Shown here: positions 603-9,524 of the stretch, one piece after another
Numbering within the stretch: the stretch's first letter is position 1
How the letters are laid out: the number at the start of each line of letters is the position of its first letter
Origin: a virus
Virus genome (UHGV): UHGV-1550841
Reading direction: 5' to 3' (one strand)
Length of the DNA stretch: 10,154 bases
The notes under the pieces: model-generated
Told to the model about the DNA's origin: nothing
The model's input: the letters and a program-made list of their open reading frames with translations, nothing else
Databases searched by the model: none
Position numbers and translations under genes: made by a program

Positions 603-612
603 GTGACGGTAT
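603..612 (+). repeat. GTGACGGTAT 10-mer copy 2 (candidate integrase arm-type site)
   Basis: Exact 10-mer, 57 bp upstream of the integrase GTG start and abutting an operator-like palindrome. Confidence 0.4.
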
Positions 613-626
613 TACCTTAAAGGTAT
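612..626. promoter_or_regulatory. Operator-like palindrome TTACC-TTAAA-GGTAT (9/10 to TTACC-N5-GGTAA) upstream of int
   Basis: Overlaps a possible -10 (TATACT, 624-629) about 40 bp upstream of the integrase start. Confidence 0.3.
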
Positions 627-668: not shown

Positions 669-1925
669 GTGCTTACCGATACAAAATTAAAAAACCTCAA
701 GCCACAGGACAAACTGTACAAAGTTTCCGATCGTGACGGGCTGTATGTGGCTGTGCTTACGTCAGGCACGGTCTCGTTTCGCTACGACTACCGTATCAAC
801 GGTCGCCGCGAAACGCTGGTAATCGGGCAGTATGGGCGTGACGGTATCAGTCTGGCAGAAGCGCGAGAAGAACTGATTGCTGCAAAGAAGCTGCTTAAAG
901 CAGGCCAGTCACCGGCTGCGGCTAAACGTGACGGTATCAAAAAGATTCGTGGTGCCGAGACGTTTGCGGTACATACCGACAGTTATATGAAACACGTCAT
1001 CCTGGCTGACAGTACCCGCGCAATGAAACAGGCGGTGATCGACCGTGACATACTTCCGGTTCTTGGCAATAAAATGATGGCTGAAATTACCACATCGATG
1101 GTTCGTGATTTGTGTGACCGGATTGTCGAACGCGGTGGCCGGGCAACAGCAGTGCAGGCCAGGGAGATCATCAGCAGCGTATACCGTCACGCCAATGACC
1201 GTGGTCATGGTTTGTTTAATCCTGCGGCTGACATTAAACCTTCGTCTATCGCCATATTTAAACCACGAGAGCGAACACTGACACCAGAAGAAATTGGCCT
1301 GTTCTTCCGCACGCTGGATGCCATTGGTGCTATGGGCACTATGAAAATGGCTTTAAAGCTGGTGCTTATCACTATGGTTCGTAAAGGCGAATTCACCAAC
1401 GCAACGTGGGATGAAATAGATTTTAAAAAATGGACATGGACAATTCCTTCAGACCGCATGAAGGGAAGCCGGGCGCACGTTATTTACCTGCCTAAACAGG
1501 CTCAGGATATATTGGTCGGGTTGCAGATGTGCGCTGGTGGAAGTGAATATCTGGTTCCTGGTCGTTACAATTTCCGGAAGCCATTATCTAATGCCGCGCT
1601 GAACTCTCTGATCGACAGAACGGTGAAAATAATAAATGAAGATGGTGAGCATATTCAGGGCTTCACCGTACACGATATGCGCCGTACAGCCAGTACGTTG
1701 TTGCATGAGGCTGGTTATCCTTCAGACTGGATTGAAAAGGCTCTGGCACATGAGCAGAAAGGTGTGCGCGCCGTATATAACAAAGCGGAATACGCCAGAC
1801 AGCGCGCCTACATGTTGCAGCAGTGGGCCGATATGATTGATTCCTGGATTAACGGGGAGCATACGGATCTGATTCCGTTCTCCCCGTCGAAGTTTGAGAG
1901 GTGGATGGAAGACAGTAATAAATAA
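669..1925 (+). CDS. int: Tyrosine site-specific integrase, P4-type (arm-binding N-terminal domain plus catalytic domain)
   Basis: 418 aa. N-terminus LTDTKLKNLKP...GLYVAV...SFRYDYR fits the P4-type integrase arm-binding domain. C-terminal region has the HxxR motif (VHDMRRTAST) and conserved Tyr region. GTG at 669 is the only start available (in-frame TGA at 663-665); SD is weak. Stop TAA 1923-1925. Confidence 0.9.
   Translation: MLTDTKLKNLKPQDKLYKVSDRDGLYVAVLTSGTVSFRYDYRINGRRETLVIGQYGRDGISLAEAREELIAAKKLLKAGQSPAAAKRDGIKKIRGAETFAVHTDSYMKHVILADSTRAMKQAVIDRDILPVLGNKMMAEITTSMVRDLCDRIVERGGRATAVQAREIISSVYRHANDRGHGLFNPAADIKPSSIAIFKPRERTLTPEEIGLFFRTLDAIGAMGTMKMALKLVLITMVRKGEFTNATWDEIDFKKWTWTIPSDRMKGSRAHVIYLPKQAQDILVGLQMCAGGSEYLVPGRYNFRKPLSNAALNSLIDRTVKIINEDGEHIQGFTVHDMRRTASTLLHEAGYPSDWIEKALAHEQKGVRAVYNKAEYARQRAYMLQQWADMIDSWINGEHTDLIPFSPSKFERWMEDSNK
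838..847 (+). repeat. GTGACGGTAT 10-mer copy 3, inside the integrase coding sequence
   Basis: Exact 10-mer; extended match GTGACGGTATCA shared with the copy at 928. Confidence 0.35.
928..937 (+). repeat. GTGACGGTAT 10-mer copy 4, inside the integrase coding sequence
   Basis: Exact 10-mer; extended 12-mer GTGACGGTATCA identical to the copy at 838. Confidence 0.35.
1181..1190 (-). repeat. GTGACGGTAT 10-mer copy 5 (inverted), inside the integrase coding sequence
   Basis: Plus strand reads ATACCGTCAC. It encodes different amino acids from the other in-gene copies, so the repeat is a DNA-level feature. Confidence 0.35.
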
Positions 1926-3933: not shown

Positions 3934-4851
3934 TTACATAGATGTTTCGTTTAATTCTTCCCGACGAACGCTGTAAACGTCGGTGGCTTTTGCCAGCAGT
4001 TCGTCATCATCTGAAAGTTTTTGTGCAATGTATTTGTAAGCCTTATCCAGTTCGGAGACAGTGCTGTAATTCATCGCTGCGCTGGTAAAGGCCATCAGCA
4101 TTTCTTCTGGATCACGGCTATCCGCTTTACGCGTTTGCTCATCATGCTTTTTCACTGGTTTAGCGTTGATCAGACTGTTCATGCTGGATGCTGTGCCGTG
4201 CTTTGCCTGACTTCTTGGAGTTACGTCACGTTCAATAATGTCAGGTGAGTCGATATATTTACCTTCCATTTCCTCAGCTGTGGCTTGTTGACCAATCTCC
4301 GGCCATGCTTTACGTAATGCCTGTGCCTCTGCGCATTTTGCCAACTGCGCATAAGGGCGCTTTTTCCACATGGCATTTGGTGCCGATGTGTCACGCCCCC
4401 CAGTTGCATAGTTCTCAATCCAGTATTCTTTGGCGCTAAACTCTACGATTTCCCCGCTTGCCATTCGCTTGCTGACGGTGTACTTACACCACTGAGGGAA
4501 GGTAACCTCCACGCCTGAAAGCGTTTGTGTTACATCTGGACCGAACTCAGGTTCATTAGCGCCTGCGTAATCGCCGGAACGGTAGGCCTGAATGCGATAA
4601 AGTCCAATGCCAGGCATGACCACGTCGCGCCATTCATTCTTTCCACTCTTCGAGTCTTTAACACTCATTGGTACCAGGTGTACCGGCTTAAGAAGAGGAT
4701 CGAGTTGACGCGCCCGGCAGTAATCGACTGCCATCATTACCGATTCATCTTTTGCCCCAGGGTAAATACTGTTTTTCAGAGCGCTCCATGTAACTTCATC
4801 GATTCCCCGAATAGCCAACACATCATTGGTGATTGCAATTTCGTTGCTCAT
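3934..4851 (-). CDS. recT: RecT/Bet-family single-strand annealing recombinase
   Basis: Translation from ATG 4851 (MSNEIAITND...). The region NAMWKKRPYAQLAKCAEAQALRKAWPE resembles the conserved RecT/Bet C-terminal core. ATG overlaps the TGA of the upstream exonuclease gene (ATGA), the classic exo-recT pairing. Confidence 0.8.
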   Translation of the reverse strand: MSNEIAITNDVLAIRGIDEVTWSALKNSIYPGAKDESVMMAVDYCRARQLDPLLKPVHLVPMSVKDSKSGKNEWRDVVMPGIGLYRIQAYRSGDYAGANEPEFGPDVTQTLSGVEVTFPQWCKYTVSKRMASGEIVEFSAKEYWIENYATGGRDTSAPNAMWKKRPYAQLAKCAEAQALRKAWPEIGQQATAEEMEGKYIDSPDIIERDVTPRSQAKHGTASSMNSLINAKPVKKHDEQTRKADSRDPEEMLMAFTSAAMNYSTVSELDKAYKYIAQKLSDDDELLAKATDVYSVRREELNETSM

Positions 4852-5669
4852 ACGTACATATCCTGTTTGCGTGCCCACTCAGGGCGTTTAATAATTTCCA
4901 CGCCGCCCCATTCATCGCTGATGCGGCATTCGTGATAGGTATTCAGATCCCGGCGGAACAGAGCGTGCCCGGCATCGACATCCGGCGCATCCAGCTCGAA
5001 CACGCGTACCGGATACCGACCACAATCAATGCTTTCGCTCACGGCAAGAAAGAAAAAACCATGCGGCTGACCAGTAACCCTCATTGCGCCTTCGCGGTAC
5101 ATTGCGTCCTGCACGTGGTAGCGGAATTCCTCGATGTGACGTGCAAAACGGTCCATATCTGCAACCTTTTTCACGTCGATGATCACGTTGTGCTCGTTCA
5201 GCCATTTGTCTGGACGAATTCGGCACAACTCACCAGTCTCTTCATCGTTCCAGTACATTGATGCTTCGCAGTAACCAGGTGCTTCCAGCATCCAGCGTGC
5301 CGCCGGGTGAGCCATTGCGCTATCACGCATCAGCTCCAGTTTCCGCCACTGCTCGGCATCAAGTACCGCAATCCCCATATCCGCTACATCACGAAGAAAT
5401 GCTTCTTCGTCAGCTTTACCTTGTTTCGTCCGACGATCGAACTTTGGTGAAACAATGAAGCGTTTGTCGAATTCTCCAGGCTCCAGAAGCAGACAGTGCA
5501 ATGCAGTTCCCATATCTAGTGCAGACTTTTTCTCTTCGTCTTCTGGTGCTGCCTGAACCCATTTAAGAAGCGCCGGATTCTTGGCAACCATGTCCAGTTG
5601 CGACTTACTCACGCCGTCACCGGCGTGGTAGTCCTCATTGCTGATGTCGAAATAGATGCCAGTATTCAT
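4848..5669 (-). CDS. RecE-like PD-(D/E)xK exonuclease (partner of RecT)
   Basis: 273 aa. N-terminus FDISNEDYHAGDGVSKSQLDM is typical of RecE-like/PDDEXK exonuclease domains, with an IIDVKK-type motif downstream. Translationally coupled to recT. Confidence 0.75.
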   Translation of the reverse strand: MNTGIYFDISNEDYHAGDGVSKSQLDMVAKNPALLKWVQAAPEDEEKKSALDMGTALHCLLLEPGEFDKRFIVSPKFDRRTKQGKADEEAFLRDVADMGIAVLDAEQWRKLELMRDSAMAHPAARWMLEAPGYCEASMYWNDEETGELCRIRPDKWLNEHNVIIDVKKVADMDRFARHIEEFRYHVQDAMYREGAMRVTGQPHGFFFLAVSESIDCGRYPVRVFELDAPDVDAGHALFRRDLNTYHECRISDEWGGVEIIKRPEWARKQDMYV

Positions 5670-5872
5670 AACTTAACCTTGTATTCGTTCTGCTTGTTGG
5701 AACGGGTTCCATCGTGGAAATATATTGCGCTCCTGGTTACCTCTACCCATTTGCGACGTTCAAGCTCAGCGATGAACCAAGAAACCTTCGATCTTGAGAT
5801 ACCAAGAATCTTTGCCATATCTCGGATGCTGTGTTTTCCACCTCGCAGCAATGAGAGGAGTGTTGGTTTCAT
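5666..5872 (-). CDS. Small helix-turn-helix (winged-helix-like) DNA-binding protein, unknown role
   Basis: 68 aa. HTH-like segment SIRDMAKILGISRSKVSWFIAELERRKWVE. SD GAGGGA 7 nt upstream of ATG 5872. ATGA overlaps with both neighbouring genes. Confidence 0.5.
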   Translation of the reverse strand: MKPTLLSLLRGGKHSIRDMAKILGISRSKVSWFIAELERRKWVEVTRSAIYFHDGTRSNKQNEYKVKL

Positions 5873-6342: not shown

Positions 6343-6357
6343 TTACCGTTGGGGTAA
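6343..6357. promoter_or_regulatory. Operator OL-proximal: perfect palindrome TTACC-GTTGG-GGTAA
   Basis: Perfect half-sites. Abuts the proposed -10 of the leftward early promoter. Confidence 0.5.
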
Positions 6358-6385
6358 TAATTATGCGTATCTGGTTTGATGTCAA
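6357..6385 (-). promoter_or_regulatory. PL-like sigma70 promoter for the leftward early operon (-35 TTGACA at 6385-6380, 17-bp spacer, -10 AATTAT at 6362-6357)
   Basis: Consensus -35 hexamer read on the minus strand; 17-bp spacer; moderate -10. Bracketed by two operator palindromes. Confidence 0.4.
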
Positions 6386-6404: not shown

Positions 6405-6419
6405 TTACCCGTTAGGTAA
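6405..6419. promoter_or_regulatory. Operator OL-distal: perfect palindrome TTACC-CGTTA-GGTAA
   Basis: Perfect half-sites, 19 bp upstream of the -35 of the PL-like promoter; centre-to-centre 62 bp from the site at 6343-6357. Confidence 0.5.
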
Positions 6420-6430
6420 TCTAACAGGCA

Positions 6431-6455
6431 ATAAAAAAGCCGCCAGAAGGCGGCT
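6431..6455 (-). terminator. Rho-independent terminator downstream of the repressor gene (minus strand)
   Basis: Stem AGCCGCC (6438-6444) / GGCGGCT (6449-6455) with AGAA loop; on the minus strand it is followed by a run of T (plus-strand AAAAAA at 6433-6438). Confidence 0.6.
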
Positions 6456-6476
6456 TACTTACTGAAAAATATGATT

Positions 6477-7061
6477 TTATTGTTTGTTTTTTTCGTTCTG
6501 GTTGATGACAAATTCAATGTAACTTTCGATCTTTGCTTTCTCGGTTTCGGGTAACAATGCGTAGCGCGAGCGGTCATAGTTGATAGTCGCAGGGTCGTGC
6601 GGGTGAATCAGTAGTTCATAGCCGTGACGCCCGAATGCGGATGCAACATTCTCCAGGGTGGAAATGGAAACGCTGACCTCATTGTTTAACAGGCGGCTGA
6701 TTGTCACCTGGGCGACGCCGGATGCGCGGTGAAGTTTTCCCTGTGTTGAAAGGTCGCGGCTTTCGCTCATCCAGCGTTCCAGGTTGTGAGCCGCCAGCTG
6801 ACCTATATCGCTCGGGCCGACAGGCTGAAAACCCTCCTGAGAAAGCGAACGATCAATATCAAGCCAGTTACGGGGTTTATTGGCGGCAGCTTCAATTTTT
6901 CGCGCAACCTGGTCGCCGATAACCTTCTTGCCAAGAGCCCAGCGGTTTACCAGATTTGCCTGAGTTCCAAGTTTTTCTGCCATCCGCGTCTGAACACCAT
7001 TGAATTCACGGTCGATCAAGTCGTTGAGATTTTGCCTGCGGACGTCCTGGATACTTTTCAT
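6477..7061 (-). CDS. Immunity repressor candidate with two tandem HTH (XRE-like) domains and no recognisable LexA/S24-type autocleavage domain
   Basis: 194 aa. N-terminal HTH-like segment (TRMAEKLGTQANLVNRW) and a second HTH-like segment (LHRASGVAQVTISRLLNNEVSVSISTLENVASAFG). Transcribed divergently from the Cro-like gene; flanked by operator palindromes on both sides and followed by a hairpin terminator. Confidence 0.75.
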   Translation of the reverse strand: MKSIQDVRRQNLNDLIDREFNGVQTRMAEKLGTQANLVNRWALGKKVIGDQVARKIEAAANKPRNWLDIDRSLSQEGFQPVGPSDIGQLAAHNLERWMSESRDLSTQGKLHRASGVAQVTISRLLNNEVSVSISTLENVASAFGRHGYELLIHPHDPATINYDRSRYALLPETEKAKIESYIEFVINQNEKNKQ

Positions 7062-7116
7062 TTTCTGGAAAATCGCCTCATATATGAATCAGTAGATGAT
7101 TCAATTTAAAGCAATA

Positions 7117-7131
7117 TTACCCAACAGGTAA
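7117..7131. promoter_or_regulatory. Operator OR site 1: perfect palindrome TTACC-CAACA-GGTAA
   Basis: Perfect half-sites in the divergent repressor / Cro-like intergenic region. Confidence 0.5.
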
Positions 7132-7133
7132 AT

Positions 7134-7148
7134 GCACCTCATAGGTAA
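7134..7148. promoter_or_regulatory. Operator OR site 2 (imperfect): GCACC-TCATA-GGTAA
   Basis: 8/10 match to the half-site consensus, 2 bp from site 1. Confidence 0.3.
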
Positions 7149-7164
7149 CTATCCTTGATTTTTG

Positions 7165-7179
7165 TTACCTTATGGGTGA
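7165..7179. promoter_or_regulatory. Operator OR site 3 (imperfect): TTACC-TTATG-GGTGA
   Basis: 9/10 match; lies between a -35-like TTGATT (7155-7160) and the Cro-like start. Confidence 0.3.
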
Positions 7180-7215
7180 ATATTTATTATCTGAAATAAA
7201 TATCAGGCAATAGCT

Positions 7216-7446
7216 ATGAGCGATAACGGACATTTCGATTTCAAAAAGCACTGGCTTGCACTTACTCCGGATGAGCGTGAAGCCTTCGCACAGGAAGCCG
7301 GAACGACGAGTCACTATATCCAGACTCACTTAACAGGTAAGCGCAAAATGCCAGGTAAAGTATTGATGAATGGGCTTTTTAAAGCCTGTAAAACAAGACA
7401 ATGGTTGCGCTCAAAAGCAGAACTGGCATACTTCTTCTACTCATGA
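7216..7446 (+). CDS. Cro-like (possibly CII-like) small HTH regulator, first gene of the rightward operon
   Basis: 76 aa. HTH-like segment EAFAQEAGTTSHYIQTHLTGKRKMPGKVLMNG. Position directly divergent from the repressor across the operator cluster. Confidence 0.55.
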   Translation: MSDNGHFDFKKHWLALTPDEREAFAQEAGTTSHYIQTHLTGKRKMPGKVLMNGLFKACKTRQWLRSKAELAYFFYS

Positions 7447-7812: not shown

Positions 7813-8628
7813 ATGAGCAGACATGCAACAGATTGGGCCTGGGAGACAGATCCAGGTAGCTCGTCATTAAAGCTCATACTGCTCTCGATGGCTGACAGAG
7901 CCGATGAATATAACCTCTGCTACCCCAGCATAGAACGCCTCGTTAAAGACACTTGCCTGAATAAAAAAACCGTGCAGGCCGGGCTTATATCGCTCATGAA
8001 AATGGGGCTTATTTCAGATACCGGAGAGAGAAAGGGAGCGACGAAAAGAGTGCGGGTTTTCTCTCTTAATATAACCAAAAACGGGAACATTAAAGGCAAC
8101 CGGGAAGGGGGTAACGAACCCGAAAACGGTAATGTTACCGAAAACGGGAATATACCCAAAAACGGGATGTTGAATGATCCCAAAAACGGGATGTTGAATG
8201 ATCCCAAAAACGGGATCCAGAACCAGTCATATAACCAGTCATTTAACCAAGAGAGGGAGAGCAGGACAAAAAGCGGGGATTCTGTGCCTCATGACCCCGG
8301 AGCAAACAACGCCGTGATGAATAACTTTGTTCCTCCTGGTGGGCCAGGGCAATTAGGCAAATTTGTCATGCATGAACAATGGCAGCCATCAGATGACTTT
8401 CTTCGGAAAAGCTCATTGCAGGGGATCTACCTGGACAGTCTGCCAACGGCACAGGAACTTGCAGAGTTCAGAATTTACTGGATGGCTGAGGGTAAGGCAT
8501 ACCATCAGGCACAGTGGGAGCAGAAGCTGGCAAGGCGGCTGCAGATTAGCAGACAGAAGCAATCAACATTACCTGATAACAACGTTCCGCACTGGAACAG
8601 CCCTGAAGCATGGGAGGATTTCTTGTGA
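7813..8628 (+). CDS. Replication initiator, lambda-O-like in organisation (N-terminal winged-helix, internal iteron-encoded repeat linker, C-terminal domain)
   Basis: 271 aa. GGAG SD 8 nt upstream of ATG 7813. N-terminal HTH-like region (LKLILLSMADRADEYNLCYPSIERLVKDTCLNKKTVQAGLISLMKMGLI). The central part is encoded by direct DNA repeats (iterons). Directly followed by a lambda-P-like gene. Confidence 0.75.
   Translation: MSRHATDWAWETDPGSSSLKLILLSMADRADEYNLCYPSIERLVKDTCLNKKTVQAGLISLMKMGLISDTGERKGATKRVRVFSLNITKNGNIKGNREGGNEPENGNVTENGNIPKNGMLNDPKNGMLNDPKNGIQNQSYNQSFNQERESRTKSGDSVPHDPGANNAVMNNFVPPGGPGQLGKFVMHEQWQPSDDFLRKSSLQGIYLDSLPTAQELAEFRIYWMAEGKAYHQAQWEQKLARRLQISRQKQSTLPDNNVPHWNSPEAWEDFL
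8076..8218. repeat. Origin-type iterons inside the O-like gene: six copies of an AAAACGG(G) core, including a perfect 24-bp tandem repeat
   Basis: Cores start at 8078, 8123, 8141, 8159, 8183 and 8207. CCCAAAAACGGGATGTTGAATGAT occurs at 8155-8178 and 8179-8202, with a partial third copy at 8203-8218. Followed by the direct repeat AACCAGTCAT x2 (8221-8242). Confidence 0.6.
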
Positions 8629-9447: not shown

Positions 9448-9462
9448 TTACCTATCAGGTAA
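9448..9462. promoter_or_regulatory. Operator: perfect palindrome TTACC-TATCA-GGTAA
   Basis: Perfect half-sites, 19 bp upstream of a -35-like TTGATT. Confidence 0.5.
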
Positions 9463-9481: not shown

Positions 9482-9510
9482 TTGATTTCGTGTCTTATGT
9501 GGTTTTTAAT
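9482..9510 (+). promoter_or_regulatory. Sigma70-like promoter (-35 TTGATT at 9482-9487, 17-bp spacer, -10 TTTAAT at 9505-9510) bracketed by two operators
   Basis: Hexamers and spacing read directly; geometry relative to the flanking palindromes is identical to the PL-like promoter. Confidence 0.4.
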
Positions 9511-9524
9511 TACCTTAGAGGTAA
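9510..9524. promoter_or_regulatory. Operator: perfect palindrome TTACC-TTAGA-GGTAA overlapping the -10, start region and SD of the DUF1064-like gene
   Basis: Perfect half-sites; centre-to-centre 62 bp from the site at 9448-9462. Confidence 0.5.

Follow-up and report, generated by a model that had tools for sequence, protein, structure and literature searches.

The window, a stretch of 10,154 nt from the virus genome UHGV-1550841, is the unintegrated early and immunity region of a lambdoid-style temperate podophage. It corresponds approximately to coordinates 26,300-35,700 of phage phiV10 and is mosaic relative to that genome (~84% coverage, 97% identity). The Rz/Rz1 spanin genes lie at the window start (34-351), followed by an intact attP core (ATTGAGTGGGAATGATT, 462-478) and a P4-type integrase gene, int (669-1925). 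A leftward operon encodes a metallophosphatase, an MT-A70 methylase, PerC/ANR-like and AlpA-like proteins, RecT, a PDDEXK exonuclease and the products of three small genes; the rightward operon comprises a cro-like gene, a small gene, a DnaT/O-like initiator gene, a lambda-P-like loader gene and a DUF1064 gene. A scan of the window for tRNAs returned none. The preliminary description had placed a 194-aa ORF at the immunity position, and this gene, here called rep (6477..7061), is real: it runs on the minus strand from an ATG at 7061 to a stop codon at 6477-6479, flanked by the leftward early operon with its RecT and exonuclease genes on one side and the rightward cro-like/O/P operon on the other. 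Its start codon is secure, as the first residues M1-K2-S3-I4 are invariant across 26 homologues. The cro-like gene (7216..7446, plus strand), which diverges from rep, codes for a small HTH protein of 76 aa matching the transcriptional repressor family phrog_35 (E=5.6e-13). On the minus strand an intrinsic terminator, annotated as such in phiV10, lies at 6437..6456, 21 nt past the rep stop codon.

The rep product is a lysogeny repressor of the SPC32H Rep family, and its sequence is 100% identical to gp40 of the coliphage phiV10, ORF21 of vB_EcoP_ZX5 (ZX5) and the repressors of the E. coli O157 typing phages 9 and 10. A tblastn search of phage genomes found the identical protein in at least 11 phage records besides those of phiV10 gp40 and ZX5 ORF21, and more distant relatives in Enterobacter phages (75-78% identity), Klebsiella phages (~45%), epsilon15 (~42%) and SPC32H (41.8% over 98% of the length). 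A wider protein search gave 86 clusters, each of ~194 aa, from Escherichia, Citrobacter, Lelliottia, Serratia, Raoultella and other genera. Among PDB sequences, phmmer aligned Rep aa 1-190 of 194 with 5D50_A, named 'Repressor' (E=4e-42), and aa 89-190 with 5D4Z (E=4e-20). Existing annotation points the same way: the phiV10 record describes 'two helix-turn-helix motifs; similar to putative repressor epsilon15p38', and the epsilon15 RefSeq record lists the HHpred match 5d50_A for its orthologue. The identical protein has also been studied in vivo. Overexpression of ZX5 ORF21 reduced free phage to zero, with endolysin transcripts lowered by 99.99% and holin transcripts by 99.97% (Li et al. 2022, PMC9782041). 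It is thus already known that repressors of this type exist, have been structurally characterised and are represented by annotated and functionally tested phage proteins with the very sequence found here.

Two HTH domains had been proposed for Rep, and both were detected. The Pfam family HTH_3 matches in two stretches (E=1.2e-9; the better one at aa 106-147), a Cro/YdaS-like HTH is found at aa 21-61 (E=3e-4), and PHROG repressor families match both halves of the protein, with aa 1-76 covered. The proposal failed in its implied function for the second of these, which by homology is a dimerisation domain and not a DNA reader, and it missed a third, C-terminal element at aa ~152-194. Secondary literature divides SPC32H Rep into a DNA-binding domain (DBD) at the N-terminus, a dimerisation domain in the middle (MDD) and the CAD at the C-terminus, a p53-like TetDloop that serves tetramerisation and Ant binding (PMC9986798). 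This three-part architecture of DBD, HTH-fold MDD and C-terminal CAD/TetDloop is present in the window's Rep. Its N-terminal HTH domain (aa 1-72; 6846..7061, minus strand), to which we give the DBD role on the basis of PMC9986798, is 53% identical to that of SPC32H Rep and keeps the recognition-helix motif NLVNRW. The second HTH_3-fold domain (aa 83-151; 6609..6815, minus strand), the MDD by homology and with its role taken from the same source, is 34% identical, and the C-terminal CAD/TetDloop element (aa 152-194; 6480..6608, minus strand; role again from PMC9986798) is 45% identical; the linker is unrelated and shorter in the window's Rep. Assigned by this homology, tetramerisation and Ant binding would reside in aa ~152-194.

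An AlphaFold2 model of Rep, built from 26 homologues (mean pLDDT 78), agrees with this division. It shows a four-helix N-terminal domain at aa 4-59 followed by a disordered linker, and a C-terminal half made up of five helices (aa 83-151), a low-confidence stretch and a long helix (aa 172-193). Searched against the PDB with Foldseek, the model matched best to 5D50 (E=7e-11) and 5D4Z (TM 0.72); the entry 5D50 is titled as the crystal structure of a Rep-Ant complex from a Salmonella-temperate phage. As a side observation, the second HTH domain has kept the conserved signature SQxTINR of a LacI-like recognition helix, in which Q118 and R123 never vary. That this domain still contacts DNA is a speculative idea to which we give roughly a one-in-ten standing.

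The preliminary description had further recognised no LexA/S24-type protease domain and no Ser-Lys context in this protein, and had named profile search and structure prediction among the means of checking; both bear it out. Neither Pfam (E<=1) nor NCBIfam (E<=0.1) detects an S24 peptidase or any other catalytic domain in Rep, and PF00717 in particular gives no match at E<=1. The dipeptides Ala-Gly and Cys-Gly are absent from all 194 residues, and a motif search found neither a GDSM-like serine motif nor a Ser-Lys motif. The Foldseek matches, led by the Rep-Ant complex, include no LexA/CI catalytic domain or S24 structure, LexA being represented by its N-terminal HTH alone (E=0.25). Likewise, the 86 database homologues contain exclusively HTH families among their Pfam domains and not one protease domain, and the 17 window ORFs that were scanned contain no ImmA/IrrE-like or other protease domain. 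Membership of Rep in the S24 class of LexA and lambda CI is excluded.

For the binding sites of Rep we searched the window for the palindrome TTACC-N5-GGTAA (in its longer form ATTACC-N5-GGTAAT), allowing at most one mismatch. Seven copies were found against 0.2 expected, and every one of them is intergenic; whole genomes contain eight (phiV10) and ten (SPC32H) exact copies, compared to none in Markov simulations. That this motif belongs to the repressor is already known, the epsilon15 RefSeq record annotating seven 'repressor' binding sites, each of the form ATTACC-N5-GGTAAT. Between rep and the cro-like gene lie an exact OR3-like palindrome (TTACCCAACAGGTAA, 7117..7131), an OR2-like site with two mismatches (GCACCTCATAGGTAA, 7135..7149), which aligns with exact sites in SPC32H and epsilon15, and an OR1-like site with one mismatch (TTACCTTATGGGTGA, 7165..7179) that overlaps the candidate PR. 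Two OL operators bracket a strong PL-like promoter, one 5' of the PL -35 (TTACCCGTTAGGTAA, 6405..6419) and one abutting the PL -10/+1 (TTACCGTTGGGGTAA, 6343..6357), with a centre-to-centre distance of 62 bp. The same spacing of 62 bp separates two palindromes in the interval between gene P and the DUF1064 gene: TTACCTATCAGGTAA (9448..9462), whose epsilon15 equivalent is annotated 'repressor', and TTACCTTAGAGGTAA (9510..9524), which lies 4 nt 5' of the DUF1064 gene start. Finally, an operator-like site with one mismatch lies 5' of int (TTACCTTAAAGGTAT, 612..626) and occurs as the same variant in phiV10, SPC32H and epsilon15. Window operators align with the SPC32H and epsilon15 sites, and the spacing within both pairs is kept in phiV10 and SPC32H. 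As 62 bp correspond to ~6 helical turns, this distance would suit one Rep tetramer bridging two sites. The binding of Rep to the ATTACC-N5-GGTAAT sites, like its binding to Ant, is predicted here from sequence.

When five phages with Reps of 42-100% identity are aligned across the rep-cro interval, the three operator blocks are seen to be kept, together with a AAAAATCAA block and, on the rep strand, the element TTTACC-N18-TAAATT. We infer that this element is the rep promoter, a candidate at 7103..7132 (minus strand) with a -35 TTTACC (7132-7127), an 18-nt spacer and a -10 TAAATT (7108-7103); it scores below the threshold of the promoter scanner and is called from conservation. Its -35 overlaps the OR3-like operator, and it would give a leader of ~35 nt. 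A candidate PR (TTGTTA-17-TATTAT, 9/12; 7162..7190, plus strand) would drive the cro-like gene, and a candidate PL (TTGACA-17-AATTAT, 10/12; 6357..6385, minus strand) the leftward early operon. The earlier suggestion that rep is translated from a near-leaderless message or with a very weak SD holds for its second half. The sole SD-like element is a GAGG at 7079-7076, 14 nt from the ATG, and a well-placed SD is found 5' of rep in none of the five aligned phages; a weak SD is a family trait of rep genes. A leaderless rep mRNA, on the other hand, is disfavoured by the conserved promoter-like element ~35-40 nt upstream, and the message is probably not of this kind.

If Rep is not cut, induction would need another trigger, and the preliminary description had considered an antirepressor while seeing none in the window. 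The window indeed lacks one: tblastn at E<=10 for homologues of Ant or Bro-N antirepressors returned noise only, and no LexA box of the form CTGT-N8-ACAG is present, the best CTG-N10-CAG sites matching 8-10 of 20 consensus positions. Complete relatives explain why both are missing: ant would lie ~5.5-6 kb beyond the left end of the window, the distance at which it is found in them next to the tailspike gene, with an Ant that is 80-100% identical and behind a canonical LexA box. In SPC32H, ant (86 aa) is flanked by the last virion gene and the tailspike gene and is divergent from the latter. The phiV10 gene p24, annotated 'hypothetical', occupies the same position, and its product shares 88% identity with SPC32H Ant. 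In phiV10 (CTGTGTATTTATACAG), SPC32H, epsilon15 and ZX5 the ant start codon is preceded, at 20-40 nt, by a canonical LexA box. Ant together with its LexA box is therefore present in phages carrying the identical Rep (phiV10, ZX5), and, judging from these relatives, the window's own phage would carry ant as well. Ant homologues occur in 35 phage records, nearly the same set as the 36 with a full-length Rep; the identical-Rep record of BP9 gave no match in the Ant homologue search. In the ant-tailspike intergenic region of phiV10, SPC32H, epsilon15 and ZX5 we also noticed an operator-type palindrome 5' of ant, and Rep may act on the ant or the tailspike promoter too.

The genomes of SPC32H and its sibling SPC32N differ at exactly two bases, one of which changes CTGT to CTTT in the ant-proximal LexA box. 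Kim and Ryu, in 2013, reportedly linked this point mutation in SPC32N to constitutive Ant, and are said to have found that SPC32H Rep stays uncleaved during SOS. Ant is far better conserved than Rep (88% versus 42% between phiV10 and SPC32H), and the two proteins show no co-variation across the family; within Rep, the DBD and the CAD have diverged less than the MDD. This suggests that one type of Ant can serve diverged Reps, so that cross-induction would be possible. In a 2026 preprint, a DNA-damaging microcin raised the induction of phiV10-species prophages 21- and 47-fold (bioRxiv 10.64898/2026.05.26.727859), which fits coupling to the SOS response.

From these elements the following course of events can be proposed. 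By homology, Rep would form dimers via its middle HTH-fold domain and tetramers via the CAD element at its C-terminus, and a tetramer would use its N-terminal HTH domains to bind pairs of ATTACC-N5-GGTAAT palindromes. For SPC32H Rep, two secondary sources describe reversible dimers and tetramers and DNA binding as a tetramer in which the DBD pairs come from different dimers (PMC9638917, PMC9986798). Sitting at PR/P_rep, PL and several other promoters, Rep would keep the lytic genes off. Having no protease domain, it would remain uncut upon SOS induction. DNA damage would instead inactivate host LexA, which would leave the CTGT-N8-ACAG box in the ant promoter, and an Ant tetramer (85 aa) would bind the C-terminal domains of Rep and take it off the DNA in a reversible manner. 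The corresponding sequence of LexA self-cleavage, antirepressor production and inhibition of the repressor by protein-protein interaction is given in a secondary source (PMC7380047, citing Kim & Ryu 2013), and further secondary literature, including bioRxiv 2025.11.27.690993, likewise covers tetramer formation, the way Ant works and the path from SOS via LexA to Ant. With Rep ~42% identical to SPC32H Rep overall, Ant binding by the window's orthologue is what the homology predicts, and the initial idea of a non-self-cleaving repressor paired with an antirepressor finds support in the homologous and structurally solved SPC32H Rep/Ant system. We are therefore confident, if short of certain, that rep encodes the antirepressor-controlled immunity repressor of a phiV10-type Uetakevirus (an epsilon15-like podophage) and is the orthologue of SPC32H Rep.

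Three other readings have to be weighed against this one. Rep might be inactivated by proteolysis after all, through cryptic RecA-stimulated autocleavage or an ImmA/IrrE-type partner protease. Apart from this being the default for lambdoid repressors at such a genome position, nothing positive speaks for it; the lack of an S24 domain, of an AG/CG site and of a Ser-Lys motif in Rep, the 86 homologues free of protease Pfam domains and the 17 scanned window ORFs with neither an ImmA/IrrE-like nor any other protease domain all argue against it, as does the inhibition by protein-protein interaction that is described for the SPC32H orthologue (PMC7380047). We regard it as very improbable. Even less credit can be given to Rep being an XRE-type antitoxin or accessory regulator in place of the immunity repressor. 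The BP9 record does label the protein 'plasmid maintenance system antidote protein VapI', and there is a weak match to the HigA antitoxin family TIGR02607; at 18.7 bits, however, it falls far under the cut-off of 47.7, and the neighbours are the terminator and PL operon on one side and the cro-like gene on the other, with no toxin domains. A tripartite operator between divergent rep and cro genes, the classical layout, is at odds with an antitoxin, too, and so is the block of the lytic cycle upon overexpression of the identical protein, ZX5 ORF21 (PMC9782041). With a score below the cut-off and no adjacent toxin gene, we rejected the HigA/VapI label.

More can be said for the view that induction proceeds mainly via a larger Bro-N 'anti-repressor' (the lineage of ZX5 ORF4 and phiV10p23) and not via the small, LexA-controlled Ant, though we still consider it unlikely. 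Overexpression of ZX5 ORF4 lowered the prophage titre ~1000-fold, and anti-repression was credited to this protein (PMC9782041). ORF4 has a Bro-N domain and resembles Ant over its last ~75 residues (38-44% identity, E~1e-14), which would make binding to Rep plausible. The ZX5 interval from ant to ORF4 showed no LexA box, however, which leaves the Bro-N route with no evident tie to SOS. In phiV10 the p23 protein is shorter and a single Ant-like place is seen, yet DNA damage does induce prophages of the phiV10 species. Conservation of the stand-alone Ant behind its LexA box, moreover, is universal, and the two routes are not mutually exclusive. ZX5 in fact has both proteins, a separate Ant under a LexA box as well as a Bro-N-Ant fusion. 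In the ZX5 study of the identical protein, no connection is drawn to the SPC32H Rep/Ant system, and neither the separate ant gene nor the resemblance of the 'ORF4 anti-repressor' C-terminus to Ant was noticed (PMC9782041). Several relatives likewise have two to three Ant-like places. A tentative extension is that in phiV10-type phages a single Rep is subject to two-key antirepression, by the LexA-gated small Ant and by a Bro-N-Ant fusion without a LexA box; we hold this to be possible but rather doubtful. If it were true, the near-invariant Ant (80-88%) would act as a 'master key' that cross-induces heteroimmune Uetakeviruses with ~42%-identical Reps, and the Bro-N-Ant fusion as an SOS-independent trigger.

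Control of Rep by the LexA-gated Ant, which we favour, adds little in itself, as the mechanism, here re-derived from raw sequence, is known from SPC32H publications of 2013 and 2016. Its practical value lies in the use of phiV10-type phages as reporter and typing phages for E. coli O157, whose induction by SOS-triggering antibiotics or bacteriocins would hinge on ant and LexA and not on repressor cleavage.

Set beside the classical repressors lambda CI, P22 C2 and LexA, the system shares the immunity position, divergent promoters at a three-site OR with additional OL sites, and a repressor that has its HTH at the N-terminus and is weakly translated from its message. In contrast to them, the window's Rep has no S24 domain, cleavage site or Ser-Lys dyad, would oligomerise by an HTH-fold domain and a p53-like TetDloop, and has operators of its type at many other promoters genome-wide. 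Closer in logic are coliphage 186 CI/Tum and the Salmonella Gifsy/Fels-2 pairs, with a non-cleavable repressor, a LexA-repressed antirepressor and SOS-coupled induction (PMC7380047). None of the searches performed here returned a sequence relationship of Rep to the 186 CI/Tum or Gifsy/Fels-2 families, and Rep does not belong to them. Kim and Ryu are also said to have described, in 2013, the SPC32H Ant as structurally distinct from the antirepressors of 186, Gifsy and Fels-2. The Rco/Rap system of plasmid pLS20 resembles Rep in its N-terminal HTH DBD, C-terminal TetDloop and protein antirepressor (PMC9986798); unlike Rep, Rco has no middle HTH-fold dimerisation domain, and it controls plasmid conjugation with quorum sensing, not SOS, as the trigger.

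The closest structurally solved counterpart is that of SPC32H, a Salmonella Uetakevirus (PDB 5D50, Rep-Ant complex; 5D4Z, Rep 92-198), which matches in full-length homology, three-part architecture and genome position, in the ATTACC-N5-GGTAAT half-sites, the tripartite OR and the 62-bp-spaced site pairs, and in a partner Ant that is 88% identical and lies behind a LexA box in phages with the window's exact Rep. It differs in that the central 5 bp of the operators are A/T-rich in SPC32H and G/C-containing in the window, where OR1 and OR2 are also more degenerate. Tetramer formation, Ant binding and non-cleavage are described for SPC32H Rep in secondary citations and are predicted for the window's Rep by homology. 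The repressors of phiV10 (gp40), ZX5 (ORF21) and the O157 typing phages 9 and 10, finally, do not differ from the window's Rep in any residue.

The block AAAAATCAA (TTGATTTTT on the plus strand; window 7150-7164), which lies between the operator palindromes OR1 and OR2, is unchanged in all five phages of our alignment of the rep-cro intergenic region (columns 65-73), a diverged set whose Rep repressors are 42-100% identical. It may be a conserved -35 element (TTGATT) of PR, the candidate promoter of the cro-like gene, or an UP-like element. Two alternative PR assignments are thus left in the window. Between the candidate PR -10 element and the start codon of the cro-like gene we also found a CTGA-N8-TCAG palindrome, CTGAAATAAATATCAG (7191-7206). 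As a LexA box it matches only 8 of the 20 consensus positions and it is not conserved in phage SPC32H; the weak resemblance is therefore probably due to chance.

The divergence of Rep (window 6477-7061) was compared with that of Ant, the small LexA-gated antirepressor. Between phiV10 (Ant gene at 20543-20800) and SPC32H (19676-19936) the Ant proteins are 88% identical, but the Reps only about 42%; for Klebsiella phages the values are 65% for Ant and 45% for Rep. The two divergences do not co-vary across the family, which suggests that modules have been shuffled and that Ant tolerates diverged Reps. Ant-like sequences are found at two to three places per genome in several relatives. In phage ZX5, the stand-alone Ant (2089-2346) is preceded by a LexA box and is 97.6% identical to its phiV10 homologue phiV10p24, annotated as ‘hypothetical’. 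In addition, the C-terminal domain (~75 aa) of ZX5 ORF4 (1078-1773, minus strand), the Bro-N ‘anti-repressor’ already tested by experiment in that phage, is homologous to the SPC32H-type Ant (38-44% identity, E~1e-14). The SPC32H and SPC32N genomes differ by exactly two bases (positions 19960 and 20147); one of the changes turns CTGT of the ant LexA box into CTTT, and the other falls where the tailspike gene begins.

The attP core ATTGAGTGGGAATGATT (462-478; attP was reported in PMC9782041) is intact. It precedes int by 190 bp, and the Rz/Rz1 genes adjoin it on the left. Therefore, the window is not a prophage junction and derives from an unintegrated form of the genome (virion or circular). 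Its relation to phiV10 is mosaic, with differences at 1928-2587, where a calcineurin-like metallophosphatase gene takes the place of the phiV10 DUF1382 gene beside int, and at 5666-5872, where an extra 68-aa winged-helix (MarR/ArsR-like) gene lies between the exonuclease and phrog_856 genes. RecT (314 aa; 3934-4878) and the PDDEXK exonuclease (273 aa; 4848-5669) are separate overlapping ORFs, whereas phiV10 is annotated with a single 587-aa ‘RecE-RecT fusion’. The lengths add up exactly (314+273=587), which points to a frameshift difference, or else to one record carrying an artefact of sequencing or annotation.

The O/DnaT-like replication gene contains tandem repeats at 8118-8249 (18 bp x2.8; 24 bp x2.6, perfect; 12 bp x2.4) that encode a repeated NGN/PKNGMLND peptide. 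As in the lambda O gene, they are probably origin iterons. Rep-type palindromes also occur outside OR and OL: one precedes int (612-626), and a pair precedes the DUF1064 gene (9448-9462 and 9510-9524), 62 bp apart as in the OL pair. Further copies are found in phiV10, SPC32H and epsilon15 before terS, the head genes, ant/tailspike and the lysis cassette. With palindromes before so many genes, Rep seems to reach almost all transcription units and in this would differ from lambda CI.
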